Below are positions 3,677-35,619 of a DNA stretch of 49,376 nucleotides, one piece after another; the first letter of the stretch is position 1, and each line of letters begins with the position of its first letter. Where the stretch lies: positions 1-49,376 of the forward strand of contig JAUCBJ010002599.1 of NCBI GenBank assembly GCA_032718475.1, written 5' to 3'. Both the position numbers and the translations under genes were made by a program. Under the pieces are notes generated by a model that was not told the origin of the DNA, made no database searches, and worked only from the letters and a program-made list of their open reading frames with translations. This stretch comes from Nemertoderma westbladi (taxonomy: Eukaryota > Animalia > Xenacoelomorpha).

Positions 3677-3739
3677 CAAACCGACAGTGAAACGGACAGA
3701 CAGCCATAGCTCAAGAAGAAATAGAAACAAATTTTAAAG

Positions 3740-9658: not shown

Positions 9659-10156
9659 GCTGCTAGATCTATCATGATTTGCTCAAGATCAACCATTCAA
9701 CCGTCACAACCTACTACGATATGACCAAGAATAGCAACGCCATCAGACTCTATTAGCCATTCCGCAGTCGTATGTTAAGCTTATTCTTTCCGTCCGTAAT
9801 ATCATTTAACTCATTTATATATAGATGCGGTGCAATTTTGGTGACGGTATATAATGTATAATACCTGCGCGAGTCTATCGATCTACTTAGGCTGCATATC
9901 AAATTTCTTTTCAACATTATTTTTCCTTCTTCAATATTTTTCTTTTTGATTTCGTTTGATTTCTGCCCTTTCAAAAAAAAAAAAAAAAAAAATCATATTG
10001 GTCTTATTTTAGTACTGATTGGTACCTCTAAAATATCTAAAATATAAAATTCAAATTATATACTATATATAGCTATATGTATGTGTGAGTAAATTCACAC
10101 TAATAAAATAAATTAAAAATAATATAAAGTAATGGTTCTCCCCTTTCTCCTTTCAT

Positions 10157-10402
10157 ATGGTTTTAATCCATACTTTTAATTGTACGTCTTATATGTGCCC
10201 TTTGTACGTCCTATATGTGCCCTTTTGTATGGTTTTAATCCATACTTTTAATTGTACGTCCTATATGTGCCCTTTGTACGTCCTATATGTGCCCTTTTGT
10301 ATGGTTTTAATCCATACTTTTAATTGTACGTCCTATATGTGCCCTTTGTACGTCCTATATGTGCCCGTTGTACGTCCTATATGTGCCCTTTCTTTGTACG
10401 TC
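10157..10402. repeat. 72-bp tandem repeat (x3 plus partial) built from 22-bp TTGTACGTCCTATATGTGCCCT subunits in the 3' region of element A
   Basis: Unit starts at 10157, 10229 and 10301. Confidence 0.92.
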
Positions 10403-10562
10403 CAGTCAATTAAATATGATTCAATTTGTAATAATACACACCCTAATTAAATAAAAATTATAATATATCCCTACAGAATTAAAATAAACATGTCGTAACA
10501 TTTCGCCACGTAGTTCAATCCAATTTATTGCGAAAATGTTCGCCATAAATTGTAGGGGGGAC

Positions 10563-11167
10563 TGTCATCGGCGAAATGCCATTTCAAATAAATATATTTA
10601 TTCGACATACTGTACAGTATGTCTCAGAATAGAGTGACCAATCAGCATTCAGACTCAGACTGTATATATAAAGCTCAACCATCAGACTTTCCGATTCATT
10701 CTGTATTCTATTTCAATCACAACATTTTTCCCACAAATTTGGTTATTACTTTTTCTGCCTTTTCCGCTTTCCTACTTCAGTACTCCTTCATTCAGAATTC
10801 AGCACTTTCTTTTACATTCCGACATTGCAGCCTTAGTAGATCTTTACTTTAGATAATATTCAGATTCAATATGCAATATCCAGTCCGGCAGTACCAGTAT
10901 AATATTTAGATTACTTTAGTCATATTCATTCGCCTATGGTACCAGCAACCGGTAATTACTACATTTACAATAAAATGCAAGATGACACAACCACTGTCTT
11001 TAAACCTTTTCCATCAGTCCATGCAGACAGAATTAGCGATCAACCAAAATAGAACATAGTTTGGCGGCGTAGACTATTGTTCTCAATAGAATTAGAATGC
11101 AGATACAGTATATCACATATTTCAGTTCATCATCAGATTACTCAGTTCAGCAGTTCCGCCGCGAACA
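10563..11167 (+). repeat. 3' LTR of element A (605 bp)
   Basis: Preceded by PPT 10554-10562, followed by TSD TACAC. Confidence 0.92.
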
Positions 11168-12105: not shown

Positions 12106-14300
12106 TCATCTAAAAAATAAAGATATAAATGGAAATACAACCCATGGTTCCTTATAACTTTAGACAGAGAACGAGTATATATCGTGAATAAGAGAGGCCC
12201 AAGGACCGACTCTTGAGGTAATCCGTATCTAACTGTTTTTGCTAGGGAGTACGAATTTCCGATTCGAACCTTTTGTGATCTATTCGCAAGATATGACCGA
12301 AACCACTGTAACACATTACCACTAACCGCCAAATCATCCTCCAGTATTTCTAACAACTTATGATGATCAACTGTGTCGAAGGCGGCTGAGAGATCTAGTA
12401 AGACCAATAGAACGGCTGATCCATCATCGATAGCCCTCAGTATATCATAATTTACCTTGAGTAATGCTGATTCTGTCCCATGATTCACACGATATGGCGT
12501 TAGGTACTTGGCAGGATTTCCTCGACTTCTGGAGCCAGTAGGTGGAGTTGCCATCACCCCATCACCATTATTAACATAGTAGTAGAACATAGAACATTGT
12601 CAACCACAATTATGAATAAAAATGGCGCAAGTGTATCTCCCTGGAGGACTCTCCATAACACTTCAAATGGTTCTGTGTCACCATCAACAGTAGTCACAAA
12701 TGTCGCCGAACCATCGTATACTGATCTGATTGCTGCAATAATTTCAGATTCGGAATTTCTGATTTCATTTTTCCCATAATGAAAGTATGCTGAACATACA
12801 TGAGCGAGAGACTCAATCAAAAACTTTGAAGAAGTTAACAAAGATAACAGCAAGCTGCCTGTCTTACTTTTTTGATAACTCATCAATCAAACCGACAGTG
12901 AAACGGACGGACAGCCATAGCTCAAGAAGAAATAGAAACAAATTTTAAAGGTAGGAGTGGATACGGCGCCTGAACTGCTAACACAATAGTGTTTGATGGC
13001 GCAGGTTCGAACCTAACTATAGGCTCTAGAAATTTCGCACTGTTGTGTTAGGCAAGACACTTACTTAGTGCCTACGCCAACCCAGCGGTATAATGGGAAC
13101 ATGGCTTTGCTGAGGGGATAATAATAAATGCGCTTTGAGTATGCCGAGCGTAGAAAAGCGCTAAAATAATAAATAAATAAAAATAATAAATAACCAATAG
13201 TAATATTATTATTTTTAAATAGAATGATGGATTTCAATATCATTTCATACTCCTTTTGTTAATATGCTATTATATGAAATTAGAAGAATTATTTTATTTT
13301 TGCCATTTTCGCCTTCAAATGTATCTAATTTAATTCCATTTTATCATAAACATCGGAAGTGCTACCTCCGATGGCATTCCCGTATCTCACAGAAAGCAAA
13401 GGAAAATTTACGCAAAATATCGATTTCCTGCCGTCTATCTGTCGAAAAGCAATTAAAGTTTGCAAAAATGTTCCCAAAACAATAGAGATATCAGAGGACG
13501 TCCAATGTAAATGTAGATAGCACCACCACCACGTTGTGGCCTTAACCCGCGGTAACAACTAGCCTCTCTGGTAGGAGTTTAATATTTTATCTAATTACAT
13601 TACGCCTCCTTGACGATTTGATTTGGTAGTTTGACAGTTTGATCAATACTGCTGCGAGGTTGCAAATGTACTGATTACAGGTACTGTTACGCACAGTACA
13701 CACATACTTCACGCAGCTACCGACATGAATTAGTCTGAAGGAGCAGCACCCATAAGCAGAAACATATAATAATACGGGGATAAACGCTACGCCTACACCT
13801 ACTCCTATTCCTACTCCTATGGCTACACCTACGGCTACACATACTCCTACGCCTACACATACGGCTACACCTACTCCTATGCCTACACCCATGGCTACAC
13901 ATACCCCTATGCCTACACCTAAGGCTACACATACTCCTACACCTACAAATACGGCTACACATACTCCTATGCCTACACCTAAGGCTACACATACTCCTAC
14001 ACCTACACATACGGCTACACATACTCCTACGCCTACACCTACGCATACGCCTACACCTACACCTACACCTACATCTACACCTACACCTACACCTACACCT
14101 ACGCCTACACCTACACCTACACCTACACTCTTCCACTTCTTTCACTTCCAGTCTCGAGACTCACCATTGCTCAGAATGTGATAAAGTACAGTTAACTGAG
14201 TTAGCTGTATAAATCGAGTGATCCAATTGATTGATATGGTTACTGTTCCTTGGAAATACCGGACATGTCGAAACGTCCCCTTGGAAACGTTTTTCTAAAA
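12106..14300 (+). repeat. Local direct duplication of the block 2892-11691, without element A: L2 piece, RTE piece, SINE, spacer, ACACCT array, P-element remnant
   Basis: 12106-13162 is nearly identical to 2892-3950; 13267-13820 matches 4240-4795; 14125-14300 matches 11242-11691 with internal deletions. Confidence 0.92.
12951..13190 (+). mobile_element. tRNA-derived SINE, copy 2, with A-rich (AAAT)n tail
   Basis: Duplicate of 3740-3951. Confidence 0.7.
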
Positions 14301-14368: not shown

Positions 14369-15453
14369 GTCGACAATACCAACCCTACCAGCCACCATGT
14401 ACTTATTGTACTTGACTACCATCACATCACAAACCAAAAGGCCCTTTTCAAGGCCACCACATCCAATAACAACAGTATCACCGAAGCTATTTGTTTGTAA
14501 CATAGATTCATTACATATCATGACTTCGCTGTGTTAATATCGATAATATCAATAATTCGATATGTTTTCTTTAGAAAAAAATGCGGACAGTTTTAATGTC
14601 TACAATAAATTATTATTACAATATTTAATTATTATAAATAAAATATATCATAAATATGAAATAATAATAATAATAATTTAATTATCCTTCCAAAAATGCG
14701 GATAATAAAATGAAATATTATTATTAATAAGTATTAATATTAATAATTAATAAATTAAGTAATTATAAGTAATCGTAATTATTACTAAATTTAGCTTTAA
14801 AATTTATTATTTAATTGATATTACTTAATCTCTTAAACTCAGAACTGACAATGCTGTAAAGGATGCTTATACAGTAGAAGTTCAAAACCGCTTTGAAGCA
14901 CTTCAGTCAATGGATGAAGACCAATCCACCGATTCAATATACCAGAATATAATAACAGCCCACAAGGAATCAGCTAAGAGGCATATCCCCCAGAAACCCA
15001 AACGAAAACAGTATGTGTCATGGCAAAACTCTGAGGTTACTTGTAAGAGAGAAGATCTTAAGCTAGCCGACAAAGTTAAAACCGAACAACCAACAACTGA
15101 AAACATTAACAAGGTTGTGAAAGCTAAGGACGATCTTAAATTGACCTACAACATCAGCCAGGAAAAGTACATACAGGATAAAACTGAAGCAATTACAACT
15201 GCTCACATACAGCAACAATCAAGAATTACCTGGTAAACTGTAAATGAGGTATCTGGTCTGAAAAGTTGTGCAAAGGGGCGCCTCAAAGCCGATAGTCCTG
15301 AAGAACGTGTTGGGAAGTGGAAAAATCACTTCAGCAACTTGCTTGGGCGCCACCAAACATCGAGGTCAGCCCTAGAGGAAAATATATGACAAGACACTAC
15401 CTATAGAAACAGGGGACTTCACACCTGCCGAACTCCAAAGAAGCATAAAAAGC

Positions 15454-16677
15454 ATGTCCAAAAATAAAGCGAGTGGATTAGATGAAATCCCAGCGGAGGT
15501 ATGGAAAACCGGAGTGCTAAACAGACCATTATTGAATGTTTGCAACCGGATGTTAAAAGGGGAAAAGCCACCACCAATTTGGACTAAAGGTCAACTAAAG
15601 CCTCTCCCCAAGAAAGGAGACCTCGGCATACCAACAAACTATCGTGGGATCTGTCTGCTTGTGGTAGCTGCCAAAATATACAATAAAATGATTCTATATA
15701 GGATTAGGCCTCACATAGAGAAACTACTGCGTAAGAGCCAAAACGGATTTCGACCAAGTAGATCAACAATAGCTCAGATACTTGCACTACGGAGACTGAT
15801 TGAAGGAATTAAGTCAAAGAATCTCCCCGCAGTCATGACTTTTGTGGACTTCAAGAAGGCATTCGACTCCATCCATAGAGGTAAAATGCTTGAAATCCTA
15901 AGAGCTTATGGAATACCAGAAGTAATTGTTGCTGGCATTGGATTGTTATATTGTGACACAGAAGCGCAGGTACTCTCACCAGATGGTGAAACTGAGTTTT
16001 TCTCAATCCTGGCTGGCGTACTGCAAGGTGACACATTAGCCCCATTACTATTTGTAATTGTGCTGGATTACGCAATGAGGACGGCCACAAAGGGTGAAGA
16101 TCTGGGATTCACACTTCAAGAACGCAGAAGTAGTAGATATCCGGCAACTACAGTCACAGACACCGACTTAGCGGATGACATCGCCCTGCTCTCTAATACG
16201 CTAGCAGATGCACAGCTTCTACTAAATAAAGTGGAGAGGGCTGCTAAGGAGGTTGTATTGCATATAAATGCTACAAAGACCGAATACATGACCTTTAATG
16301 TTGATGGGAACTTGACAACCATTGATAATAATCAACTAAGGAAGGTCGATGACTTCCAGTACCTTGGATCATGGATAGAGAGTAGCAAAAAGGACATAGA
16401 AGTTAGGAAAGCAAAGGCTTGGGTAGCTGTATCAAAAATAGATACCATCTGGAAATCAGATCTCTCCAGGCACTTGAAGACTAAGTTCTTTCGAGCTACA
16501 GTGGAAAGTGTATTTTTATACGGGGGTGAGACCTGGACACTGACTAAATCACTTGAACAACGAATTGATGGTTGCTACACAAGACTACTAAGGGCAGCCC
16601 TAAACATCAGCTGCAGACAACACATGACAAACGCCGAGCTTTATGGTACAATACCACCTGTATCAACCACCCTCCGT
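15454..16677 (+). pseudogene. pol: RTE reverse transcriptase domain; C-terminus continues at 18938-19171
   Basis: NYRGICLL, SQNGFRPSRST, FVDFKKAFDSIHR, GVLQGDTLAP, LADDIALL, FQYLGS. Confidence 0.93.
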
Positions 16678-16713
16678 TGTAGCATCGAATACAGGAATAC
16701 AACGAACGTTCTC

Positions 16714-17098
16714 TCAGTTCCCCATGCATTTCCCTCTCATATTTCTCAACCCAGCCATTTTCTATCCATTTGTTAACCTCAGCATTAAGGAGTTTACTTT
16801 GTGGTTGCCCTATAGTGATGCCATAATCCCCAAGACCAGACCCCAGATGTTTTATCGGAGGGTTTCCCCCTTTCCATGTCCATTTCAATTCCCAATATCG
16901 TTTTTCATTCAGCCATGTAACTACAAAATCTTTCTCAACAAGTTCGACATCTCCATTCACACTTTTAGCAACCTTAATAAATTTACCCAGACGGGGATAC
17001 GGAACAGTATGTCTGGGGGGGAACCATTCAGGTGCATTAACGTTTAACTCACTATTCACACCCCTGATAGACTGCTCATTACGCCCATACACTTCCAC
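16714..17098 (-). pseudogene. pol: pol remnant: linker and start of RT, cut by the deletion
   Basis: EKDF...WELKWTW...EVNKWIENGWVEKY resembles the segment just before RT motif 1 in Gypsy-type elements. Confidence 0.55.
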
Positions 17099-17407
17099 TT
17101 TGTCTCCCCCAGCATCCTGGAAAGCAGCAGAGCAAACACTACTTTGTAATGGTGTTTCAATGAATTCACTATGGAGCCTTCCAAGGCCTGTACTTTACAT
17201 GCAGTTGAAGTTCTACTGGCTGGCTAACACCTGGTGCATTGAATAAAGTACATGACACCATACCAATCAAAGGCCTTTTGTCACCTAAAGTATTTAGAGT
17301 CTAATAATGAGAGTCTAAATCTTACACAATAATCATACTTTACATTATTTCGGTCTAAAAAAACCCTGTGAAATCAATGAATGAGTACAAAATGTATCTA
17401 ATCCCAC

Positions 17408-18420
17408 TCATAAATTACAAACTATTTCATTAAATGACACAGTGGATTGTACTACAGGTAAACATTTATTATACGGGGAGCACCTATAGCTATTTAAAGC
17501 TGAGGTTGCACAGATACCCCCCCTTCGCCAGTTTCCCAAACTCGGCCCATTTACTGTAGGACATTCACGACGCATGTGTCCTCTACCCCCACATCCATAG
17601 CAACGGGCCCATTTCATCGGTCCTGTTAACCCGCCAGTAACAGGCTGAGCTACCGGTGTAACCTGCATACAGTATTTACGTAAATGGCCCACCTGGCCAC
17701 ATCGCCAACACATCAGCCTGTCTCCATTAAAACGTTGTCCCCCTCCACCACGTGTAGGCAGGCGGGTTGAATAGTTCCCAACTCCACGGCTACGATCCGA
17801 ATTTACCATGGCTCCAGCGATTGTAAACCCCTCAGCATCCTCAATTGCTGCTAGAACATTATGAGCCCTAGCAACCAGTTCTGACAACGGTACAGAAACC
17901 CCATCTGCAGCCAAAGACTTTCGAAGCTGTGAAGAAACTTCCACAGGTAAACCCACAATGAATTGACTCTGTAGCATAACATTAGTCGCATCTGAAATCC
18001 CAGCCAAGGATAATAATCACTTTAAGTCGGCTAGGAAGACTTCATATGTTTCACCAGGACGCACAACACGGTTTTTAAACAAATTATAAGCTTGGAAACG
18101 AGTTATTGAAAAAGCCTCACTCAACTTTTGTTTCAAAACAACCCAATCTTCTTGTCATCGGTTGAAAGCTGTTGATATACTGTGAATGCATTGCTCTTGA
18201 GGAACAATGGTGCGAATTTAGCTTTTCTAGCGCCCCAATCCTGTAATTCTGCGATAACTTCGAATTTTTGCGCCCACTCTTCGAAATTTTGGTTGTCCAC
18301 TCCTGTAAATTTATCCAAAACGCCATCCAACTTTACACTCAAATTTCGGGCACTGCTACCGGTACCGGTACCTTCACCTTCACCTCTCGACGTTCCCGTC
18401 ACCTGGCCGTCGTTATCCAT
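17408..18420 (-). pseudogene. gag: Gypsy-type gag with two CCHC zinc knuckles (frameshift and stop)
   Basis: KFTGVDNQNFEEWAQKFE, QFIVGLP, CWRCGQVGHLRKYC, CYGCGGRGHMRREC. Confidence 0.85.
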
Positions 18421-19526
18421 ATATTTAAACCTCAGTCTGGTATGAACTAAACTTTTAAGTACCGCGTCCGTTAAGTATAGGGCCTACAGTGGTAGGCTAG
18501 CGGTGTCAAAATTATGTTACCGGTTGACCAGTAATACAGTAGGCCTAATACTGTAATAGGAAATAAGTAAATGCAGCCTCGCGGTGATAGCTTGTAGCAT
18601 CAAATACAGGAATACAACGAACGTTCTCCCAAACTTCCCAGTCACTTAAATAATTAATATATCTTCGAGCGTCAATGCAATCATTTATTATATATATATG
18701 TAATATAACAATATAAACCAGTATACACAATTAACAATAACCAATTACTGAATCCAAGTAATAAACCTAATCAGTGCAACCCAAGTACCACTCCACTGCC
18801 CTACCGCCTACCAGTACACTTCCACACTCTCTACTAACTATCACTCTCCATCCTTCCTCGCCTTAGGTCCTCACCTACTCCCCGACCTATCGCCCTACTC
18901 TCACCGCACACAATTGCACCCGCCGACCCAACACCGTGAACACAGATTAAGATTCAGTGGGCACTGCTGGCGAAGTAAAGACGAGGTCATACCAGATCTA
19001 CTTCTCTGGCAACCAACTCATGGAAAGCGTAGTCGTGGACGACCGGCCATAACATATATAGATCAACTTGAAAGGGATACTGAGCTTGGGAGAAACGAAA
19101 TTGCGACAACTATGGAGAATCGGGAAGCCTGGAAGGATCTCATTTCCACTGTCCAAGTTCGCTCGACCTAGTAGTAGTAGTATTACTTAATAACACAATG
19201 GTGCAGAATTTACCTCAAATTTGCAATAACATTATTATATTACGCTAAGCTTCGAATTAAAAAGTGAATATTTTAAATAATATTATTATTTTGTTAATTT
19301 ACTGCCTAAAAATACTGTGATAATGCCTCCCACACTTTGTGACTCGGCCATTTGTATACAGACATATACATACATATACAGTATAATGTCTGTATGTAGG
19401 TACAAGCCTACCTGCCTGATACTGCTGTCTGCCTACTGCTGTACTGCTCTGACGGTACCGGTCTGCCGGTACTGCAGCAGTGTGGTAGGTCCATAAAAAA
19501 ATGAAATTGAAATAAATGTAGACTCA

Positions 19527-20373: not shown

Positions 20374-20401
20374 TCAGATAGAGGTGCGGGGCATAACGAT
20401 C

Positions 20402-20840
20402 TGAAAACTTAACACTTTGTTCATGGAATGTTGATGGTCTGAAAAATAAACTAGAAGATAGAAATGTTCTTTCATATTTATGTAGTTACGATATAGTATG
20501 GCTATTAGAAACTAAAACTGCGTGGCGAATAAATGTCCCTGGTTTCATGTGCTACTCAAATCCGTCGGCGGCGGAACATCGTGGTGGGATTGCTGTCTTG
20601 ATCCGCTCGAGTTTGAATCATTTAGTTAAACGGATAAACTGTTCAACAAAGGGCCAGATTTGGTTAGAACTGTCAAGTATGCCTGCTGGGGTGGTGCTCG
20701 GGGGATGTTATATCCCACCGAGTGATTCTCTGTACTTTGAACCATCTCTTTTTGCGATGTTGGAAAGTAGGATGGTACAGAATCATTGTATAGTTCTAGG
20801 GGACTTTAATGCGAGAGTAGGGCAGCCACAATTCGGGGTA
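20402..20840 (+). pseudogene. LINE ORF2 AP-endonuclease, N-terminal part
   Basis: SWNVDGL, LLETK, GGIAVLIR, CYIPP, LGDFNARVG. Confidence 0.9.
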
Positions 20841-21369
20841 TGTTAGCTTATTCAATCCCGCTAACACCCCATAAAGTTAAGCCGATAAGCAATATTGGGA
20901 GCCACGAGATTGGGTAATCAACCAACTCGTGCCACCCCAATAAGAATGGGAAGGAGAAGCACACAATTAGGGTCAGGGGCCAAACCCCTAACCCAGAGAG
21001 AACAGGTGGAGTGAACGGGAACACTCCAAAGGGCGCCAACAAGGGTATCAACCAATCAGAGGGGGGAAAGGCATCGATTAGGTAGAGTAACAAGGCCAAC
21101 CGTGCAATATAGCCAGTTGGCAGTAATCATTCCATTCAGTTATCTCAGTATCATATTGGTGCTAGTTAGGTTAGATAGTTTAGCTAGGGAAGGACCAGGA
21201 CTTTAGTTACCGTATCCTGCCTTCCGTGTACGACAATCCATATCTATATCTATATCTTTATACCGGCTATTATATACAACGAACGACACGAACTCATTTA
21301 CTTTCACACATGGCGGGGACGCGTGAACTAACACCGGATAAACCGGGATCCTTCCTGGATCCCGTCATA
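20841..21369 (+). repeat. 5' LTR of element B
   Basis: TGTTAG...CCCGTCATA (CA terminus mutated to TA relative to the 3' LTR). Confidence 0.95.
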
Positions 21370-21538
21370 GTAACTAAATCAACTGCTGCCCTAGCTGAAC
21401 ACAGTAACTAAAACCAACTGCTGCCCTAGCTAAACTCAGCAACCAAACCCTTCGATAGCTAGTTAAATCGGAGCCGCCGCCCTAGATAAACTCAGCGACT
21501 ACTATCGACTACCAGCCACCAATTTAGAGACAAAGGAG

Positions 21539-24500
21539 ATGAGTCGGTCAGGTGAGACAACGCCGACGCGGACCCCGGACGAAGAATTAATGATCCGCGA
21601 GGCCACAACCAGGCGGTACAGACCCACAACGCCGGACCCATCGATAACGGGTCATCCGGCAGTTCAGGATGAGGGGGGCCGCCTGGAACCCGAGGTCGAG
21701 CCGAGAGGAGGAGAGAGCGAGGCGGAAGGAGACGGAGACGAGTCGACACGAGACACGGATGTCGGTATCGATGTCGCCGGCCAGCCACAGGCCGAAGGCG
21801 ACGAGCGGCCCACCGAAACGGCGATGGTGGGGCCGACGGTACGACGCCGGACCCGAAGAGACGGAGGAGATGTCGGTACCGATGTCGCCGGCCAGCCACA
21901 GGCCGAGGGCGACGAGCGGCCCACCGAAACGGCGACGGTGGGGCCGACGGTACAACGCCGGACCCGGAGAGACGGAAGAGAGGTCGGCGACGAGGACGTC
22001 GGGGTTTCTGAGCGACTTCGACAGGCCTACAACGCGACCCGGAGACTACTAGAGGAGGCCAGAAAAGGGGCGAAGATAGACGAGGTGAGACTGAGGAAAC
22101 GACTAGGTGAGTCGAATAAACACTTTAATTATCTAATGCGCTTCGGGCAAAGAGAACTGGCAAAGGAGAGAGCGAGAGGGGTTGCCGAGGAACTGTATGA
22201 CTTGTGGCGGTGTAGGGGTATGGAACCTAGCGTAGTGTACGTAGGGCCATACTTAGTCGATGCCCGGGGATTAAAATTAGTGGGTTGGGAGAGACCTGAA
22301 GGGGGCGAATCCGAGGTTAACCCCGAGGATTCGGCCTCGTCGGTCGGAAGAAGTTCCGGGATGCGGGGGAAAGTCAGTAGGTCGGGAAGGCGGAGGGAGT
22401 CCGTCGTAACCGATAAGTCTGCTACATCCTCCACGAAAGAAAGACTGGTGAGAGAGATAGGTGCCGCGTACCGTCTCGAGCTGATAGAGCAAGGTCAGAG
22501 GGAAATGGATAAACAGCTGGAGGAGGGGAGAATGAGGCTGGAGAGGAAAACGGCATTGATTAGAGAAACCGGAGAGAGGGCCGAAAGGGCTTTGAGAAGC
22601 CTTAGGGAGTGTGAGGAAATAGAAGAAAAGGAGTGTAGGGAACGTGAGGCGAGAGAGGAAAAGGAACGTAAGGAACGTGAGGCGAGAGAGGAAAAGGAAC
22701 GTAAGGAACGTGAGGCGAGAGAGGAAAAGGAACGTAAGGAATGTGAGGCGAAAGAGGAAAAGGAACGCAAAGAGCGTGAAGCGGAGCGTAAGGAGCGTGA
22801 GGCGAGAAGGGAAAGTGAACGCAAGGAGCGTGAAGCGAGGCGAAGGGAGAGCACTAGGAGAGTAGCAGAGTTGGCTGACCAGGACGCGCGGGAGTGTGAG
22901 AGGAGAATGGCAGAAGCTGAGCGAGAGCAAAAGGAATTAGAGAGACGCCAAAGTGAGCTTGCGGAACATAGGATTAGACGCACGCACGAGCTGCAACTGG
23001 TGCGGGCGGGGGCGTCTGAGAGCGGGACTGGCTCGAATATTTTAGGGGAGCCGGGAGCCGTGGATGCATTTATTAACACCCCACTTACAGGGACCGCACG
23101 ACAGACCCAAAACTGGTGTGACCGTACGGGTGGGGGAGGTAATAATGATAATGCTACAGTAGACATTGTTAATATTAATGGTACCGTATGGGATAACTCT
23201 AACCAAACCTTTATTGCAGCAAATAATACTCTACCTAGTAGCAGTAATTTAAATTTAAATACAAATAATAATAATTCAAATAATTTAAATAATGATCCAA
23301 GCCCGAATTTACAAAATATTTCAAATAATTTAAATAATGATCCAAGCCCGAATTTACAAAATATTTCAAATAATTTAAATAATGATCCAAGCCCGAATTT
23401 ACAAAATAATTCAAATGATTTTGTTTCAAACGAACAAATTAATTCCGTTTCCGATATGGGTGCTATTAACGTAAACACGTCGGGCGTATATGGCCAGACA
23501 GACGGAGGCCTGGTAGGCCGTATAGTTGGTAGGCAGGGAGTGACTGGGTTGGGTAGACCCAGTGAGGGCCTGGTAGGCCACGTAGTTCGTAGGCAGGGAG
23601 TGACTGGGTTGGGTAGACCCAGTGAGGGCCTGGTAGGCCACGTAATTGATAGGCAGGGAGTGACTGGGTCGGGTAGACCCAGCGAGGGCCTGGTAGGCCA
23701 CGTAGTTGGTAGGCAGGGAGTAGAGGGCCTGGTAGGCCACGTGATAGCAGAGGGAGAGGCGGGGGTGAATAGACCCGACCGCGGCAGGGTTGATGTGTCC
23801 ACTAGAGAGGGATATAGTAGCGGGGTGAGGGATAACGAAGTTAGATGTGGCGAGTGGGGGGGGCTATAGGGGCCCCACAACAGCGAGTTAGCGGCGAAAG
23901 GGGGGGGGCAGAGAGTGTCCCACAGCCGTCAGCGGATAATGCGCGGGCCAAAATAGGTAAACCGCAACACCCGGCGACGGAGAGCAATAGGGGGATTGCG
24001 AGTATCCCCGGCGGCGTGCGACCGAGCAGAGAGAGACAGGTTGACGTCGTAAGAGGGTGGACGAAGCATCGAGCCCGATCAGAAGAGGGAAGAAGAACAG
24101 TGGGGTTTAACCGGGAGGTTGACGAGAGATCTCACGAGCGGGAACACCCCACTGAAAGGAGAAGAAGAGAAGACAATAGTAGGAGTATCGCCGCGAACGA
24201 TAGAAGAACGAGGACGGATAGCGAGCCGTCGGTAGTCGAGATGAGAACAGAGAGTCAGTGGGGTCGGACTCCGGGAGATTGCCGTCACCCCGGAGAGATG
24301 CGACCTGGTGAGGTGCATTACGCGCCGATGGAGGGGTACGCGATGTACCGGTACGAAGACGAGAACAGTAGAGAGGGGGGTCGAAGAGAAACTTTCCGAC
24401 GGAATATACCTACCGATCGAGAGTATGGTAGCCACGGGGAGGACTATTCGAGAAGAATAAACTTCGATCCCGAGCGACACATGCAGACTGTAGGACATAC

Positions 24501-27479
24501 TGTAGGCCTTACTGCACATACCATAGGCCATACTGAGAGAGGCAATGTAGGGGATAGGATGGCGCGGACAATGGGATTAAACCCGGAAGTAGCGGAATAC
24601 ATACCGACGAGTAGGCCAGAAGTTGATAGGCCTATACCGGTACCAGTACAGCAGTATGACTACAGCATGCAGGGACATAACATATACCCAGGGGAGGGGG
24701 GAATTATTGCGGATAGGTGTATGGGCCCCAATATATTAACATCAACCCCAATACCAAACATACCGGTGGGGGGGGGGGGGCAGGGTGACATTCCCCCATC
24801 ACAATATCAACAATATACCCCGATAGGAGCAAGAACAACGAGACCCTTGGATGAAAATAGGTCGTGTGACACAGAAATATGGAGGGGGCCGCTACCCCCG
24901 ATGACATACCCAAGTCAAAGAAAGTCAAGAAATAGGACGGACGGACCGCACCAGACAGGAGAAACCATACAGCATCCATCGAATCCATTGGAAGCGCAGG
25001 CGATGGGGATGGCCACGTTGATCGATGCGTTAAAAACGAGGATCGAGTTACCACCCGTGGAACCATTCAAATTCGATGGGAGTAGGCCGGAAGAATATCT
25101 ACAGTTTCGGCGCATGTATAGTAACGAAATACTAACAAAAAACTTGACACAGGCGGAGTGCCTAAAGTATCTGCAAGTATACACAGGAGGCCCAGCATAC
25201 GATATCGTGAGGCAATATCAAGGAATAGAGGGCGGGTCACGACAGCATGGCGGGCACTGGATAGGGAATACGGGCACCCGACCAAGATCATCAGGCAGAC
25301 GCTGAGATGCATAACATCGGGTGGCCTACAGGATAATCCCGTTAGCATTAAGACGTTCGCTAACAAAGTCGAAAAGGCGCTAATCGTGCTGAAGACGCTA
25401 GACGCGCCATACGAGCTCAATGCGTCCAATAACATCACCACGATAGCGCAGGCACTACCGAACTGGCTGGGCAATAAGTGGAGGAAGATTGCTTTCTCCA
25501 CTCGAGACAAGAAGGGTGCGGAACCGGGTTTGGAAGAAATGTCAAGCTTCTTAAACTATGAGGCTGAACTAATAACTGACCCAGTCTATAGCGAAGATAG
25601 CCTGGGAAAGGGACCGAAGACGGATTACCATAGACCGAAACCAGAGCGCAATACATCAAACGCATTACCGAGGCTCAGGCAATCATTGCCATATGCAGCG
25701 ACGCAGGGGACTACAAGTCCACAGCTAGCCGAAGATAAGACAACACCATGGAACGGACAGGGGAACAATAACAACACGAATAAACATAACCCCAGTACGT
25801 CCAGTAGGCAGAATCCAAACAATAAGAATATTAGGGACTTTGGTACAAACGCAACTGCGATACGCAATGCACTGTATAAAGAGGGCTACGACCCAAAGAG
25901 CAAATGCCAGCTACACGCAAATGCGCTTCATCAAACCATGAACTGCAGGTACTGGCAGGCGCTGCCTAGGCAAGATCAGATAGATTATACGTCGAGCAAT
26001 AAAATCTGCTCGCGATATGTGATGAGTGGGCATAGAGCAAGGGAATGCAAGGAGAAGCTGATCAAATTTGGTCAGAGGAGAGGCCAAACGATGGCGACGA
26101 GCACAGTAGGGGCGAAGAAGAGAGGAACGGTGTTACTTGGAGTAGTACCCGTGCGAGTGATCGGGGAAGGCAATCGATCAGTAACAACACTAATGCTGGT
26201 TGATAGTGGAGCTGCCTTCACATTAGTCGAGGAATGGGTGGACGAAGAGATAGGATTGAGAACGAGGCCAAGCAGAATGGCGGTAACAACCATCTCTAGC
26301 AAAGATGAGATTCTGGAGATGAGAACAGGACGGTGCGCAATTGCAGCAGTGGCACCGGGATGCGACTATGGGGCAACCATCAACCCCATCCAAGTGATAG
26401 AGTCAATTAATATCAATGCCAGGCGGCCAACTAACATCGAGGTCGAGCAATATAAATTCCTGGACGACATTGACTTCTCAATCCCAGATGTGGACGTTAG
26501 GAAGGTATCCATCATAGTAGGAATGGATTGCCCAACGGCCCACGAAAGAATGCAAACGGTCTTCGGCGAAGACAAGCAGTGTGACCCGGTGGCGATATTA
26601 ACACCATTCGGGTGGACACTGACAGGCCCAATTAAGAGTAATATACCATTCCATGTGTCTGAGAGTTCAGGATGCATGGTGCCAGGAACTGTCGACGAGA
26701 TAGAGGAGAGGCCAGAGATGGGCAATAGTGGTAGACAGCTAGAAGTGGAAGCAACACCAAGAGAGTGGGCGGAGGAGAATGGCATGGATGCAGAAGATCT
26801 AGAGACGATGGGTTGGAACAAGAGTCCCAGCAAGCATCGGTATGGAGATGGAGAGGAGCGGACGGCAAAATGTCCGGGGGACAGGCCGGAGGAGTGTCCG
26901 GAAGATATGCCGGTCCGGTTGGGAGGCATGCCGACAAGGGGGAGGCCGAGCGGGAGGACAAGATGGAAAGGGAGAAGATTTGAGACGACCAGACCAGGGG
27001 CAGAGAAGCCCGTGGGTGGGCGTGTGATGGACAAAGGAGCCGGGAAAGTAGGAGGCGTGCTGCATACGCACGCGGGACTGACAGGGTGTGAGGGGGCATT
27101 ATATGGGCAGAGATTGTGTATACCGAAGGACGAACGGGGGTCGTCGAGGCCTTTAATGCCAGCACACATATTAAGGGGGAGGCCAGAAGAGGTGGCATCC
27201 AAGATTAAGGAGAAGAACAGGGGCGGCATTATACCGCCGGGCGACACGTTGAAGGGTGGCACTTTGCCGCCAAGGGACGACCACGAGATCAGAAACATAA
27301 ATAACAGACAGCATTTCCAAAGACAGGAGAAAAGGCCACCAGAATTGACAAGGAGAGTGGAGCGAAGAATTAGAGGACCTGTGGGGTGGCAGTGGGAGAG
27401 TTGCCTGCTGGAGGAATCACCCCTTGGGTCGCTGAGTTGTCCAATAGGTTGGACTGGGATGAAAGAGTTAGATCCGTAA
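21539..27479 (+). pseudogene. gag: BEL/Pao gag-protease polyprotein in three overlapping frames (shifts near 23860 and 25230)
   Basis: PEDSASSVG plus coiled coil; LPPVEPFKFDGSRPEEYLQF...LKYLQVYTGGPA and AWRALDREYGHP (DUF1759-type gag); degenerate Cys/His knuckles; aspartic protease LVDSGAAFTLV, IIVGMD, AILTPFGWTLTGP. Confidence 0.88.
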
Positions 27480-27637
27480 AAAGTGCGGGCAGAGGTGTTA
27501 CCTGTCTGTTAGAAGGAGCACCTCAGCGGAGTTAGAGAAGAGTTTAGTCGTCCAAGTTTTGGACTGAGGGGGGTGGGATTGAGGGCGAGACGCCCTTCCC
27601 ACACAAAAAAATAAAATAAAAAATAAATAAAATAATA

Positions 27638-28170
27638 GTACGTAGTAGGTACGCAGTTAGTAGGCAGAAGTTAGTCAGTAAGAAGGTACGTAGTACCTAG
27701 AGTTAGTTAGTTAAGAGGTACGTAGTACCTAGAGTTAGTTAGTCAGTTAGTTAGTCAGTAAGAGGGTACGTAGTACCGTCAGTTAGTTAGTTAGTTAGGA
27801 GGTACGTAGTACCTAGAGATAGTTAGAGAGTTAGAGGGTACGTAGTACCGTTAAGTAGAGAGTTAGAGGGTACGTAGTACCGTTAAATAGAGAGTTAGAG
27901 GGTACGTAGTACCGCTAGTTAGAGAAGAGTTAGAGGGTACATAGTACCGTTAGTTAGAGAAGAGTTAGAGGGTACATAGTACCGTTAGTTAGTTAGAGAG
28001 TTAGAGGGTACGTAGTACCGCTAGTTAGTTAGAGAGTTAGAGGGTACGTAGTACCGCTAGTTAGTTAGAGAGTTAGAGGGTACGTAGTACCGCTAGTTAG
28101 CTAGAGAGTTAGAGGGTACGTAGTACCGCTTAGAGAGTTAGAGGGTACGTAGTACCGTTAGTTAGAGAGA
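27638..28170. repeat. Tandem array of ~14 GGTAC-(G/A)TA-GTACC mini-palindromes separated by (AGTT)n/AGAG spacers, 28-48 bp period
   Basis: Directly visible between gag-protease and the exonuclease ORF. Confidence 0.93.
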
Positions 28171-28193
28171 GAGAGAGTAAGAGGTAAAAGGGG

Positions 28194-28200
28194 TATATAA
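28194..28200 (+). promoter_or_regulatory. Candidate internal TATA box upstream of the exonuclease ORF
   Basis: TATATAA immediately after the tandem array; function not shown. Confidence 0.3.
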
Positions 28201-28655
28201 GATATAGATATTAGTTAGCAGTTAGTAGCGAGAGGGGGGCATATGAGTACAGCTGGGTAAATCGTGTGGCCACACGACGCATACTGCTGTACTGCACAGG
28301 CCCACAGAGTAGGCCGGAATGTGGATTAGAGAATAGAACAATCCATAGGCAATAGTAAGTAGTAGGACAGTAGAATTAAAATTAAATTAAAAATAAATAG
28401 AATAGGGCTGAAAGTTACAAAGTAATGGCAACACTAGGAAAGTTATTCTAGAATATAATAAAAGTAACGGACAGAAATTGTAAATTAAGCTCATTTACTA
28501 GCTTCAGGATTAATTAGTAATAATTTAGGCTAAAAGGCGCAGTTAAGTAAGAAATAGGCCATTATCGGACAGTACAGAACATCCTAGATACATCACTCAT
28601 CTGTATTGCGCCTTGGTAAGGCACCACCTTGCAGGTGAGCGAGTGAGTGTTCGGA

Positions 28656-31202
28656 ATGGCGAACAAGTTGATCAGAAAGAGAAAGGCGGAGTCAGGAGGA
28701 AAGGAGATACTGGTGGATTTCACCGAGAGGCATCCGGAAGAGAAGACGAGAGGATACTACGAGAGGTTGGAAAGGGGTCACGCGGCACGAGCGCTGCAGG
28801 ATCACTTCCGGGAGATGCACAAACAGCGGCTGGTCGGGACCTATGGGACGCCGTCGCTGGACAACGCGATCTTCCAACACTCCCACTACGTGGTAAAAGG
28901 GGACGAGGCGAAGTTCGGGATTCCGAAGTACCCGAGGGAATCACCGAGGAAGGACTGGAAGAGATTCATAGAGTCCGTCAAAAGAGGAGGATATATGGTC
29001 CTAGACGACGAGGGAACCGTGGAAGACGAGGCGGGTTCGAGACGAGGAACGGCGGGGTCGGCCAGGACCATACTCCTACATTTGGCCGCGCCAAATGGGG
29101 ACATCTTCTTATTCGATCTAGGAATGTATGGGAAGAAGGACGGGCCGAAATTAAACCGGTTACCGAAAGCGGTACAAGTCTTGGTAAGAGAGAAGTCGAC
29201 GACGAAAGTGGGATCGGCGATTCGCGAGGATGCGGAGAGAATCATCGGTCCGGACACCACCAACCTCCTGGATATGCAGAAGGTCTTTATGGCTATGACG
29301 GCACCGGATGGGTTGGGGGTAGTCGAAAACACAGGCTAATGCGGGGCGGTGGCAATGGGCCAATTATTGGGGCTCGTGTGCCACAAACCGATGGATTGGG
29401 GGAAGTTCAGGGAAGAATACGGAGCAGAACTAGCGAACTCGCTAAAGTGGGGAGCGAGACCGGGAAAGCAGGAGGTATATCAATTCCGCAGGGGAGCGAT
29501 AAAGGTATATCAGAAGTGATATATCCTGCAGGAGGACTGGATGATGATAAGTTTGCTTAACTTATTCATGACCGTGGTTATCGAGAGGGAACCAGGGGCA
29601 TTTCTGTTATCGGGATCACCCCTAAGCTACAGGAGAGCCTTTAAAGTGGCCTTCGACGGTCTGGTAGACCACCCGGGGCTGAAGGGCGAGTCGGTGTACT
29701 ACAACAGCCGGCATCTGGTAGACGGGGAGACAGATACGCCGTATCAGAGATGGGAGCAGCTAGAAACGGATAGACGAGAAGCAAAGCGACTGGAAGAAGT
29801 CGCCAGACGGGAGAGGATAGAAGCAGAGGAGAGGGAAGAGGAGGCCAGGACACAGAGTTACGGCTTCGAGGAACAGGCAGGCTTAGACGAGCTTCATTGG
29901 ACTTCGTCAGGGAGTTCGGGGGAGTCTCTAGGGCGAGAACTGGGATGGACGGTGGGGTCACCGAAACAGTCGACGTCGGGGTTGCAAGCGATGCCCATAC
30001 CAGCGGGCGCCGAAGGCGACCAACCGCCAAGGAAGCTAAGGGAGTTAGAGGGATGGAGAGCTACTGGCGAGAGCCAAGGCGGGAAGGGACAAAGTGGATC
30101 CATCGGGATACCGGGGTTGGAGTCACTGCCAGAGGAGGAGGACGACGACGACGAGTTCGGAGAGATGCCGCCCATCGAGAGGATAGGCCACTCGGACACG
30201 GACTGGGTTGGCGGAAGGGTGGTGACGGCCAGTGGGGCGAGGGCCTTCTGGAACAGATCCGGCAAGCGGACCTGGGTGCACGAGGAGCCGGCGATGGATT
30301 TCGCGGGGAGCACTATCAGGTTGGGCGAACAACCAGGGACGGCACCACGGATAGTATTCGGGGAGACGATGCCCGAGAGGGGCGGAGAGATCGACGTAGA
30401 TAGAGACACCAACATGGAGAAATTCGCTTACCAGCGACTCCACAGACCGCGGAGATCGCTTGGGACGAAAGACGACGTGGGACGGGAGACATTGGTACTC
30501 GGCTGCGACTACTGTGGGAGACAGACCCACCAGGAAAGGAGCTGCTTGTACCGGTTCCAGAAGGGAACCTTTTGTCTCTACTGCCGAGAACCAAGTCACA
30601 GGATGGGGGCGTGTCCACGGTTGCATAACTGATGTCCAAAGTGCCACTTTCGGGGACACTACGGACGCCAGTGCGACTGGATGGACGACGAAGAGAAGTT
30701 CAGGAGATTCGAGGAGTGGGCCGACGTCGGGGCCATGACGCGTCAGCGCATGAAGGCCCAGGAGTTCAAGTGGGGTTTCTTCCTTATCAATCAGGAGGCT
30801 CACATGGAAATCATAAAGCGGAGGCTACCGTTTACCTATCAAGAGGTAGCAACGGCGGCGTCGTATGCCGGAGTAATGAACACACAAAGATATTTGGACA
30901 GGTGGACGCCACAGAACCGAGGGGAGTTTAGGGATTTCTTGGCGGAGCACGTACCGCAAGCAATGAAGATGATCCTATGGGACGCCACCAGAGGGAGACA
31001 ACAGGGCCACTCTGAGGGGCCACCGGCGAAGCGATATCGGGCACTAATAACACCAGCACCCAAGGAGCCAACAACCGGAATCAGCAGGGAGGTGGCGGCG
31101 AAAGTCCGAAAGCAGAAAGCGGATCCCAGAGGAACGGTGGTAACCAAGAAACGACCCAGGGAAGAGGACGCCAGGGGGAACTATCCCCAGAGGAACAGAT
31201 AG
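28656..31202 (+). pseudogene. DEDD 3'-5' exonuclease (WRN/EXD/Mut-7-like) plus coiled coil plus three CCHC zinc knuckles; 848 codons with three premature stops
   Basis: ExoI MVLDDEG, LLHLAAPNGDIFLFDL, LPKAVQVLVREKSTTKVGSAIRED (ExoII), LLDMQ, ExoIII-like SLKWG...QKxYILQED; CDYCGRQTHQERSC, CLYCREPSHRMGAC, CPKCHFRGHYGRQC. One reading frame; stops at 29337, 29517 and 30630 are sense codons in copy C. Confidence 0.8.
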
Positions 31203-31916
31203 GTTCCCAGGGCCGAGGGAGAGAAACTGGGACTTGGACGTGGTACGCCTGGAAGGCGCCGCATGGGACGTACGAACTATTAGGTACAAATTTAATTAAT
31301 GCAAATAATCATATAAGTGCAATTTGTATGTACGTACGTAGTAATTAGTAATCTACAAATACATACATTCGGAGTAAGTACCATAGTCATACAACCTTTC
31401 TCAATTAGCTACTGGGACTGGGGGGGAAACTGACTATGGCACTATGGACGAGACACGAGACAATTTCACACTTCTTGAGTGCGACGGCACAAGAGGGGGG
31501 GGGAGATTCGTCAGGAGGGATGAGGTAGTCAAAGTGGGGTTGAGGGACGGAGTAATAGTGCGAAGTGCGGAGAGAGTGCGGACGCAATTCTAGTGTGTGG
31601 GGGGGGGAGAATAAGAGGCTGAGTGAGGGACGAGGAGGCCAGAGTGTATGAGAGAGTTAGGGTGAGAGTGGAGAAGAGATAGGGCGAAAGTGTTGGGGAA
31701 ACAAAAGTTGCGTGAGAGGTGAGCGCGATCGGCCCGACATGGGACGCCAGGCATAAAGGGTAGTGTTATCATGCCCATAGGGAGCGGCCTGGAAAGCCGG
31801 CTCCGAGAGAAAAGAATTCCACCCCACACCCGATACTAGATCGGGATCCAGCGGGATTGTAGCGCACTTTTTTGGTTGATGCTATCTTCTTACCGGGAAG
31901 ATAACATGGGGGGGAG

Positions 31917-32445
31917 TGTTAGCTTATTCAATCCCGCTAACACCCCATAAAGTTAAGCCGATAAGCAATATTGGGAGCCACGAGATTGGGTAATCAACCA
32001 ACTCGTGCCACCCCAATAAGAATGGGAAGGAGAAGCACACAATGAGGGTCAGGGGCCAAACCCCTAACCCAGAGAGAACAGGTGGAGTGAACGGGAACAC
32101 TCCAAAGGGCGCCAACAAGGGTATCAACCAATCAGAGGGGGGAAAGGCATCGATTAGGTAGAGTAACAAGGCCAACCGTGCAATATAGCCAGTTGGCAGT
32201 AATCATTCCATTCAGTTATCTCAGTATCATATTGGTGCTAGTTAGGTTAGATAGTTTAGCTAGGGAAGGACCGGGACTTTAGTTACCGTATCCCGCCTTC
32301 CGTGTACGACAATCCATATCTATATCTATATCTTTATACCAGCTATTATATACAACGAACGACACGAACTCATTTACTTTCACACACGGCGGGGACGCGT
32401 GAACTAACACCGGATAAACCGGGATCCTTCCTGGATCCCGTCACA
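31917..32445 (+). repeat. 3' LTR of element B
   Basis: TGTTAG...GTCACA, preceded by the PPT, followed by the TSD. Confidence 0.95.
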
Positions 32446-32510
32446 GGGTACAATTTCAGTATAGAAGGAGCCAATGATCAAACAGTAAACTCGAACGGTC
32501 GGACACTTAA

Positions 32511-34086
32511 CCCTATTAGTACCGGGCTATAAAATGTTGTACAAATACCAGGGGGGGGTCATATTGACCCCCCCCCCCTCTAAAATCTACAAATTTTTAC
32601 GAAAACGTCTGATTTTTTTGTTTGTACGTAGGTATCACTAGTCTGGAACAGACCAAAAAAAAAAGTTTCTAAAAAATGTACTGCGGTGGTTATATTGCAG
32701 CACCAAAATTACAAGTAGTGCACAATTTTCACAAAATTTGAAAGTAACATTTTTCGGCAAATTGTTTTTCAATACAGGTTTTCTGGGGCGCAAAATACAT
32801 TGGAAAATATTTAAAAATGATATGATTACTATAAATGGCTGTTTAGTCCTCTCTGCGTAGGAAAAATATGAAAAAAACAAGTAACCAGCACTTTTCAGTT
32901 AGAACACAAAATTTTTAATTCACTTATGAGATGCTATAAATTTACATTTTCAGGTTTTCTGGGGCGCTGATTCTATTGGAATACATTTCTAATATGCCAG
33001 ATCATTGCTACTTGTATTTTTCGGCGTAATTTGGCAAATTTTGGGGCTAGCACCAAATTTCGTACCCATCACCAAAAAGTACAAGTTTGCGATGTTCAGA
33101 GTTGTTTTTATTGATTCCATCGGATTCAGGACCCTCATAAACCCGTATAACGCAAGAAACAAGATGATACTATCTACTGATCAATTTGCTTATTTTCCAA
33201 AATTTGGTGCTGGCACAACAATTTTCACCCACCGGCGAAAAATATAAGTTTGAAAATTCTTATGAAATTTTTACTGATTCCATTGAATTCAGAACCCTGA
33301 CAAACCCGTATAACGCAAGAAACAAGGTGACACAATCAATTGATATATTTGATGGTTTTCAAAATTTGGTGCTAGCACCACATTTTGCACTCACGAAAAA
33401 TAACTCACCGAAAAATACAAGTTTGAGATGTCTAGTTTGATAATTATATACTCCATTGTATTCAGAACAGCCATGCCATAAACCTCTAAAACGCAAGAAA
33501 TAAATTGTGACAAGCAATTTTATATATTGAATGGGTTTTCAAAATTTCGTGCTAGCACCAAAATTTGCACACAGCATCGAAAAATACAAGTTTATTACGT
33601 TTGGTGCAACTCTTATATATTTCATCGAAACCAGAACCCCAAAAAACCCCAATTGCGTACAAAACAAGTTTCTAACAATCAATTTACAAAATTAACATAT
33701 TTCAAAATTTGTTGCTGGCACCAAAATTTGGCACCCGCCGAAAAAAACAAGTATGAAATTTCTAAATCAATTTATATGAATTCCATCCAATTACTAACAC
33801 CAAAAAACCGGTGTAAATCAAAAATAGAGATGTTACAGTTCATATTTAATGAAATGTAATTTTCAAAAACGTCTCAAAAAAAGTGCCAAAAGTAGGGTTA
33901 AAAAATGGTGCTATAACTTGAAAACTACCCAATATTTTTGAAAACGGCTATCACTACTAGGAAGACAATAGGTTTTTAGGAAAAGTCATAAAATTTCAGA
34001 TTCCCAACTGCGTTTGTTTCAGAATTATACTAAAAAAAACCCGGGGGGGGGGTCATATTGACCCCTCCCCCCCGGGTTTAATAGGT
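32511..34086. mobile_element. Complete non-autonomous piggyBac-like element (1576 bp), copy 2
   Basis: TTAA at 32507-32510 and 34087-34090; termini CCCTATTA...TAATAGGT; removing it restores the LINE APE frame VNSNGRTL|KGICLARQHMVANNL. Confidence 0.92.
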
Positions 34087-34090
34087 TTAA

Positions 34091-35619
34091 AGGAATTTGT
34101 TTAGCCAGACAGCACATGGTCGCAAACAACCTTACAGTTGAATCATTGGGCGTTAAACTGTATGGAAATCTAACATTTAGGAAAGGTCGAACCTGGGTGT
34201 CAGATATAGATTTGTGTATTGTGCACAGAGAACTCTTTAACACGCTGGACGCGCTTGATATACACCAGGATCAAAAGGTATCAAATCACTCTCCATTGTC
34301 AATCTCTACAGGGATGTTAATGAGTGCTAGTTGGGATTCTCTATATGAAAGGGCTAAGAACCTAGGTGCACATATTCATGACCAACCTCCTCAGGGGGCA
34401 CAAACAAGCTCGGATGCACTATCTAAAGAATTAGCGGTCACTCTGTGGATCTGAGTTCATTTACACAGTGCTTGGAGTTAACCAACCCGCCAAATATTAG
34501 TAACCAAAACTGCTGTCTCCGTGAAATAGAAGGGGAATGTGACGACGCATTTAATTTAATAGATGGCGCTGCTAGGAAATGTATAATGAAATATTTAAAG
34601 TAATAAATATATTACGAGGATATCGTCTTGACGAGATGGGAACGGCTGCTTGAGATCGATGATCCAAAATTAATCTGGGGGGCAGTGGGATGGAAAGGCG
34701 AGATCCGACAGGACACAATCGACAAAGTGTCACAGCCGTCTGATGAAAATTTTAAGATCCATTTTGAACATCTTCTCAACCCACAGCCGACAGACACAAG
34801 CGATTTAGCCTTAAATGCAGCGAATGGTGATATATATGTACCTGTGTTAGATGACCCTTTCTCCCTTAAACCGAACAAATCGTATATAGGAATATCCCCT
34901 GCTGTATTCTTAGCACTTCCTGGGAAATGGTTAATATTTTTTCTATCTATTTTTTGTTGTGTATTTCGGGGAGCGTGGTGTCCGCTGGTTTGGGCCTTTA
35001 GTAAATTAGTAACAATATTCAAAACTGGAAATAAAATGTTCTGTAATAACTAGTTAGTGTGATGGAAACCATAGCAAAAGTCTACGATAATATGCTTATA
35101 AATTCGAGATTACTTAAGTGGTGCAATATCAGTAAATGCCAGGCGGGGGGGCAGAAAAACCGGGGATGTTTGGAACAAATCTTAGCGTTACGTTTATTGA
35201 TAGATTTAACAGTGTTTAAAAAAGTTAAACTGTTTGTGTTATTCGTAGATTTTAGTAAAGCATACGACCGCGTTCCGCGAGGTAAACTTTTAGAAGAATT
35301 GCAATTATTGGGGTGCGGTTCTATAATGTTACGAGCCCTTAAGGCGCTATACATAAATACAAAATCTGTTTTAAGAACGGCGTATATTATTACTTCAGTA
35401 GGAGTCCGCCAGGGGCGCCAACCAGCGTCACCCTTTTTTGCATATACCTCAATCGTTTAGTTACAATGATTTTCGGTGCTTACCGTACGGATGGATTCCT
35501 AGGTGTAGTACAGATATTGCTATTAATGGACGACACCGTTTTACTTGCCACTACTCGTGAGCAATGTATCGATAAATTAACAATAATGTTGGAGTACTGT
35601 AATCAATATGGTATGCAAG
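34091..35619 (+). pseudogene. pol: Host LINE ORF2: end of APE and RT domain with LMDD catalytic motif
   Basis: SDIDLCIV, SNHSPL, QAGGQKNRGCLEQI, FVDFSKAYDRVPR, GVRQG, LLLMDDTVLLAT. Confidence 0.88.

Follow-up and report, generated by a model that had tools for sequence, protein, structure and literature searches.

How does a retroelement of BEL/Pao descent start reverse transcription when the sequence behind its 5′ LTR holds no site for a tRNA? BEL/Pao replication is poorly understood, and the ICTV profile of the Belpaoviridae describes host-tRNA priming through an 18-nt primer-binding site (PBS) for tRNA-Arg or tRNA-Gly (PMC8742986). The question is raised by element B, which lies with elements A and C in a 49,376-nt contig of Nemertoderma westbladi (JAUCBJ010002599.1, the whole of which is called the window here). 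As the original prediction had held, B is without a tRNA PBS, there being no TGG within 300 nt after its 5′ LTR. No tRNA gene was found in the window, and Rfam gave no match at 20800-21800.

Anatomy and origin of element B

Judged by its sequence, B is a young, non-autonomous BEL/Pao derivative that borrows its enzymes from elsewhere (Table 1). Its LTRs are 98.9% identical and its target site duplications (TSDs) intact, which indicates that B was reverse transcribed with its present leader. The TA end is peculiar to this 5′ LTR, since at base 21368 the 3′ LTR and all contig depth give CA. As in the Belpaoviridae, the LTRs fall between 0.2 and 1.2 kb, have TG...CA ends and are accompanied by a polypurine tract before the 3′ copy. 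However, the reverse transcriptase (RT), RNase H and integrase that follow the protease in that family were not found after the protease of B, and tblastn with seven long polyproteins matches 24928-26711 only. For want of pol, B is taken as a non-autonomous derivative and not as a full member of the Belpaoviridae, and for want of an RT it would be unable to prime by itself.

The BEL/Pao origin itself, which had also been foreseen, is borne out by the relatives of the Gag and protease frames. Among the 150 matches listed from a search of 1.84 billion representatives (E from 1e-25 to 1e-11, the best from 1e-25 to 1e-14), all eight of the long relatives scanned carry Peptidase_A17 together with DUF1759, and the protein atlas matches of the B frames are DUF1759 clusters. 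In B the DUF1759-like domain is divided by a frame change near 25230, and its two halves match DUF1759 in Pfam weakly and fall short of the cut-off (E 0.017 and 0.0078).

Downstream of the protease region, B and C each have an extra 3′ ORF with three CCHC knuckles. Comparison of the two copies gives a dN/dS of 0.117 over 706 codons, a sign of purifying selection. The product is a likely candidate for a 3′-5′ exonuclease of the PF01612 kind: the ORF has an atlas feature score of 0.94 to a cluster in which 50% is PF01612, and it has acidic motifs that may be catalytic, as matched by eye to the patterns of DEDD exonucleases. There was no match in Pfam or the PDB, word-index protein searches returned no relatives, and a single-sequence model (pLDDT 35) gave no support for a fold. 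No exonuclease-like ORF was found in A, although A shares the RNA layout described below.

Several other features of the window can be recorded here. The target into which B inserted (20400-20835) is a reading frame that presumably starts like a LINE endonuclease, going by a W-N-V-x-G motif recognized by eye. There are also local duplications with LINE RT pieces, and a 164-bp repeat family (2892-5095 / 12106-14128 and 8-1415 / 32693-34091). A LINE RT frame (15376-16776) ends at a small gag-like fragment with a CCHC knuckle, which lies on the minus strand between 40-bp direct repeats (16677-18631); the upstream repeat is not followed directly by TGG. An AGTTAG-rich array of 36-nt tandem units (27600-28173) separates the protease region of B from its 3′ ORF, and AGTTAG words of this array occur upstream of the anchor arm in the LTR as well. 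Element A stands in a CTACAC array; it is without pol, and its Gag-like ORF contains an 18-nt repeat (SDSEP-like) about 50 times. A 31-bp satellite abuts the LTR end of C (44221-45124), a 14-bp perfect hairpin lies in its U3 (45608-45636) and an 11-bp hairpin just before its polypurine tract (45720-45748); similar hairpin arms are seen in B near 20890-20925 and 31870-31900.

Table 1. Positions, in the window, of the features of elements A, B and C
Feature	Position	Strand	Remarks
Element B	20841-32445	+	11.6 kb; flanked by TSD GGGTA
5′ LTR of B	20841-21369	+	529 bp; TG start, TA end in this copy
3′ LTR of B	31917-32445	+	TG...CA; 6 differences from 5′ LTR
TSD GGGTA of B	20836-20840 and 32446-32450	+	
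Polypurine tract of B	31908-31916	+	GGGGGGGAG; directly before 3′ LTR
Predicted promoter of B	CCAAT 21052; TATA-like 21105-21111; initiator-like TCAGTT 21136-21141	+	Motif match only; predicted start 21138
Anchor arm in LTR of B	21177-21189	+	Partner is leader 21389-21400 or 21424-21436
Tract in LTR of B	21202-21210	+	Predicted 3′ end of self-primer; putative cut 21210/21211, from geometry
Stem 21211-21221 / 21312-21321	21211-21321	+	Directly 3′ of tract, closes variable loop; pair probability 0.57-0.97
Internal second partner ("decoy") of B	21323-21331	+	GT(G)AACTAA; near-copy of primer site, one bulged base after second letter
GATAAA and terminal hairpin of B	21337-21364	+	Possible poly(A) signal, in C too; 8-bp hairpin 21344-21364
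Primer-site position	21370-21378	+	LTR-flush, complementary to tract, no TGG
Tandem duplication, 34 + 35 nt	21366-21434	+	21366-21399 and 21400-21434; last four LTR bases, primer site, spacer, anchor complement
Third, degenerate anchor-complement copy	21467-21501	+	66%
Gag and aspartic protease of B	21539-27479	+	Three open frames: 21467-23869, 23845-25305, 25125-27479
Extra 3′ ORF of B	28656-31202	+	Internal stops 29337, 29517, 30630
Extra 3′ ORF of C	46753-48945	-	Open for 730 codons
3′ LTR of C	45125-45709	-	Tract 45344-45336, TCTTATCAC; internal partner 45174-45165, GT(A)GATAAGA
Element A	6080-11167	+	5′ LTR 6080-6692; 3′ LTR 10563-11167
Pairing parts of A	6252-6263; 6564-6573; 6695-6706	+	Tract; internal partner AT(C)AACCAAA; post-LTR complement

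Two partners for one LTR tract

The border of the B LTR is fixed by comparison with the 3′ LTR and by the TSD, and it is at this border that the pairing begins: the LTR ends at 21369, and the nine bases from LTR+1 onward (GTAACTAAA) are the exact reverse complement of the tract. A colinear helix joins 21389-21400 to 21178-21189 with one G-U pair, and the second leader copy (21424-21436) is an exact complement of the whole anchor arm. When the LTR was shuffled 20,000 times with its dinucleotides kept, the 9-mer at the border recurred at a frequency of 0.0026 (0.0091 with offsets of 0 to 3 allowed) and the colinear 12-bp helix within 30 nt at 0.00015. Hence, the complementarity between leader and LTR, claimed from the sequence beforehand, is real and exceeds chance. 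Searches with the LTR-end DNA pattern gave only chance prokaryote-like matches (five metagenome-contig loci dissimilar to the window, no viral contigs and one bacterial record), and protein-seeded searches of viral contigs found no loci.

The tandem duplication of the leader was part of the same prediction, and two units, of 34 and 35 nt, are indeed there; its place, however, is probably outside the mechanism. The second unit opens with the last four bases of the LTR and a similar five-letter word adjoins downstream, which fits slippage. Most likely the second unit is a spare site that arose in this way, incidental to priming. Duplication through copying of a primer was rejected, because the spacer is not a complement of the LTR. 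We also rejected, for the A and B copies, a primer built by splicing: across all GT/GC-AG introns of 30 to 480 nt within the LTR, the best junction in B gave 8 nt, fewer than the 9 available unspliced, and none in A reached 8.

When the LTR was folded without its leader, a second partner for the tract appeared inside the LTR itself. Elements A, B and C all have such a partner, each time bulged after the second base; in C, the partner is the complement of that element's own tract. Over the nine positions of tract and internal partner, B and C have four unchanged, one changed on one side only and four changed on both sides, and all four double changes give Watson-Crick pairs, an outcome with a chance of 1 in 81 if the changed partner bases were random. 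The frequencies in shuffles were 0.012 for B, 0.0004 for C and 0.016 for A, in tests designed after the motif had been seen and with B and C being kin. Cross-pairing energies favor the cognate partner only modestly for each tract, and the internal partner of B pairs better with the tract of C than with its own. The comparison supports a pairing constraint on the tract in B and C, the covariation being with the LTR-internal partner. The internal partner of C also spells the same letters that had been foretold for the primer site of C, whose own leader lies beyond the window, and so lends that forecast indirect support.

Predicted folds place the two partners in competition. In the ensemble that includes the leader, pairing of the tract has probabilities of 0.59 and 0.21 for the two leader copies of the primer site, about 0.8 in sum, and of about 0.19 for the internal partner. 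In the 3′ LTR sequence, the internal pairing reaches 0.45-0.67 at seven of its eight pairs and 0.23 at the other, whereas the 5′ LTR sequence folded alone gives at most 0.04, so these predictions are sensitive to single changes. The internal-partner helix extends the stem that adjoins the tract on its 3′ side, and a single base facing the 21210/21211 step is left unpaired. Both arms of this stem are kept in C, and contig depth drops inside its loop.

How far the arrangement extends to the other elements can be read from their LTRs. The spacing of CCAAT, TATA-like and initiator-like motifs is the same in A, B and C, with predicted starts at about 6215, 21138 and 45381, respectively, which would put the end of the tract at +49, +73 and +46. 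GATAAA stands 27 nt before the LTR end in both B and C, a hint that the 3′ end of the RNA carries the entire hairpin a second time. The anchor arm of C pairs with the leader of B over 15 bp with one bulged base, although the C tract is mismatched to the 9-mer of B at four of nine positions. For A, the same geometry had been claimed, and a complement of its own LTR does follow the LTR (the 12-mer recurred in shuffles at 0.00025). However, the match is not flush but begins at LTR+3. This 2-nt gap in A goes with a base before the 3′ LTR that is not a purine, and B is flush at both ends, a correspondence that we count in favor of the model set out below. The minimum-energy fold of A contains the pairing of tract and internal partner, and its leader helix has a probability of 0 in the predicted ensemble of 6213-6900. 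AATAAA lies upstream of the internal partner in A, so the partner would be missing from the 3′ copy, which speaks against that model. By its sequence, A can be placed among the LTR elements with its class unproven: its ORF did not match BEL/Pao proteins significantly (lowest E 0.099, among 156), and Pfam gave no match of note.

Contigs from other samples show which of these parts are shared. A high-copy B family is present in three samples of one organism, with 337, 176 and 19 contigs on 21130-21470; a fourth run (X6, which we guessed to be RNA) gave none there and one on the start of the C LTR. Of 33 substitution rows over 21130-21470 at a threshold of 1%, none falls in the 18 bases of the tract and primer site. 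The anchor helix has three, two giving G-U pairs and one, in a single X5 contig (21397), breaking a pair; the unpaired spacer has two, and the internal partner one, at the bulged base. Insertions after 21329 make up about 5-8% of depth in X1. Substitution rows are absent from the whole of 21194-21264, whether paired or unpaired, and divergent subfamilies and contig ends were clipped and uncounted, so the invariance of the 9-bp helix is weak support for it. Depth falls between the bins 21370-21381 and 21382-21393 from 17190 to 547 in X1 (31-fold), from 11094 to 232 in X2 (48-fold) and from 182 to 124 in X5 (1.5-fold). Since unmatched tails were clipped (15 against 9066 across the C LTR end), this fall past 9-12 nt after the LTR indicates that the 9-mer is shared and that the sequence beyond it varies. 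As for the duplication, contigs reach into both units in X1, X2 and X5, none with 31 aligned letters on each side of the join, and in one X5 contig a single unit is followed by divergent sequence. We read the duplication as shared but optional, and reject it as a required feature.

A proposed primer cut from the element's own RNA

With moderate confidence, we favor a reading in which B, given helper enzymes, uses a 5′ fragment of its own RNA as the primer of reverse transcription, at the LTR-complementary site. Transcription would begin near 21138. In the 5′ copy the tract, whose complementarity to 21370-21378 is observed, is predicted to fold onto that site, with the register held by the anchor helix. 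Where the tract meets the adjoining stem, cleavage between 21210 and 21211 would free a 3′-OH that sits exactly at the LTR end; the primer would be about 73 nt in B, 46 in C and 49 in A. By analogy with Tf1, the likely cutter is the RNase H of the helper, whose RT would then extend from the LTR border. No leader follows the 3′ copy of the repeat, whose tract would pair with 21323-21331, a role that might keep this copy off the primer site. Plus-strand copying of the primer would rewrite the 9-nt site in every cycle, which would explain why this helix has drifted fast between B and C, at four of nine positions, beside a conserved anchor helix. Counting against the scheme, the predicted primer is four to seven times as long as the 11 nt of Tf1 and requires an internal cut.

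A more detailed version, which we regard as rather improbable, has a long capped primer of 46-73 nt arise from the bulged repeat hairpin, with a cut opposite the bulge, strand exchange from the internal decoy to the primer site, and the element's own exonuclease finishing the end. If true, LTR reverse transcription would have a third kind of start, beside tRNA and the 11-nt primer of Tf1.

The covariation lies inside the LTR and not with the primer site, which gives some room to another account, unlikely in our view, in which the tract and its two partners act as an RNA switch in translation, packaging or dimerization and the primer is a host RNA, for example a tRNA half without TGG. Half-tRNA primers exist in copia lineages (PMC6317226, in excerpt), and the invariance of the B-type 9-mer in contigs is what an external primer would enforce. 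However, the post-LTR sequences of A and B differ, each being complementary to its own tract from its first bases, and the C tract cannot pair with the 9-mer of B; nor is there a reason for a switch to end exactly at the LTR end. The priming strand might alternatively come from the other end of the RNA. Since tract and anchor arm occur in both LTR copies, the 3′ repeat could be cut or trimmed to the tract, possibly by the element's exonuclease-like protein, and pair within a circle or dimer of the RNA; a 3′-5′ exonuclease would be halted by a duplex ending at the LTR border, and the 3′ ORF resembles PF01612 clusters and is under purifying selection. We think this quite unlikely, because the internal partner and stem are predicted to close the 3′ copy, which would protect it from trimming, A shares the layout but was not found to have such an ORF, and the exonuclease reading stands without the backing of Pfam, PDB or fold.

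A functionless origin of the pairing is the least probable of these accounts, and we give it very little weight. A leader prone to duplication and a B copy that is broken and non-autonomous would suit a one-off fold-back or template switch that copied the LTR in reverse into the leader. Against such an event, complementarity is lacking in the spacer that separates the two helices, three samples have the identical 9-mer behind the LTR at high depth, the tract co-varies with its internal partner, and A shows the layout again in other letters; moreover, B was reverse transcribed with this very leader.

Of the tRNA-independent priming in a BEL/Pao lineage that had originally been proposed, the lineage, the missing complement to a tRNA 3′ end and a pairing constraint on the tract (by way of the LTR-internal site) have held up, and from these we infer the self-priming itself. 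The model predicts the post-LTR letters of any subfamily from its LTR alone, the predicted C-type primer site being GTGATAAGA, and internal partner and tract together define the predicted cut site. A self-made primer would free elements in a widespread group of animal retroelements from the need for tRNA, and would take away what tRNA-fragment defenses aim at. Self-priming would likewise account for those copies in which annotation tools place no PBS.

Relation to known self-priming elements

The self-primer of Tf1 consists of the first 11 bases of its RNA, with an RNase H cut between bases 11 and 12 (PMC7175516, in excerpt). Self-priming has been proposed for Tj1 (excerpts of PMC4600332), and there are predictions of it for Tcn1 and for the TAR lineage of plant copia elements (excerpts of PMC6317226). 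Elsewhere, the excerpts of PMC3601003, PMC6934838 and PMC5443660 mention it only for gypsy-type or hypothetical elements. A term search within the BEL/Pao surveys PMC3118150, PMC554778 and PMC6238403 found no discussion of primer sites, and no report of self-priming or of an exonuclease ORF in BEL/Pao elements was found in the literature covered, which is that outside subscription journals.

With the Belpaoviridae (Semotivirus), B shares a DUF1759-type gag, a Peptidase_A17-related protease, the range of LTR length and the polypurine tract (PMC8742986). However, it has neither a tRNA PBS nor RT, RNase H or integrase, it is 11.6 kb long, and in place of env it has the exonuclease-like 3′ ORF. 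In the TAR lineage of plant Ty1/copia elements (Houba, Osr-1), as in B, self-priming is predicted outside Tf1/sushi, which suggests that the trait arose more than once; that lineage belongs to the plant copia superfamily, and an internal second partner like that of B goes unmentioned in the excerpts (PMC6317226).

The closest parallels are the Tf1/sushi elements, among them Tf1 and Tf2 of Schizosaccharomyces pombe and Tj1 of S. japonicus, and Tcn1 (Ty3/gypsy). According to the excerpts cited above, these elements, like B, have no tRNA site and have after the LTR a complement of their own LTR-derived RNA, and in Tf1 a cut would free the primer, as we propose for B. Unlike Tf1/sushi, the gag and protease of B are of the BEL/Pao type and not of the Ty3/gypsy chromovirus type, and B is without RT and RNase H. 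Its tract would lie at +65 to +73, by promoter motifs alone, whereas that of Tf1 is at +1 to +11. B further adds the anchor helix and the co-varying partner inside the LTR, and it is this second partner of the tract, at 21323-21331, that is new here. Taken together, these likenesses and differences suggest that B most likely works in the manner of the Tf1 self-primer, without being a member of the Tf1 group.
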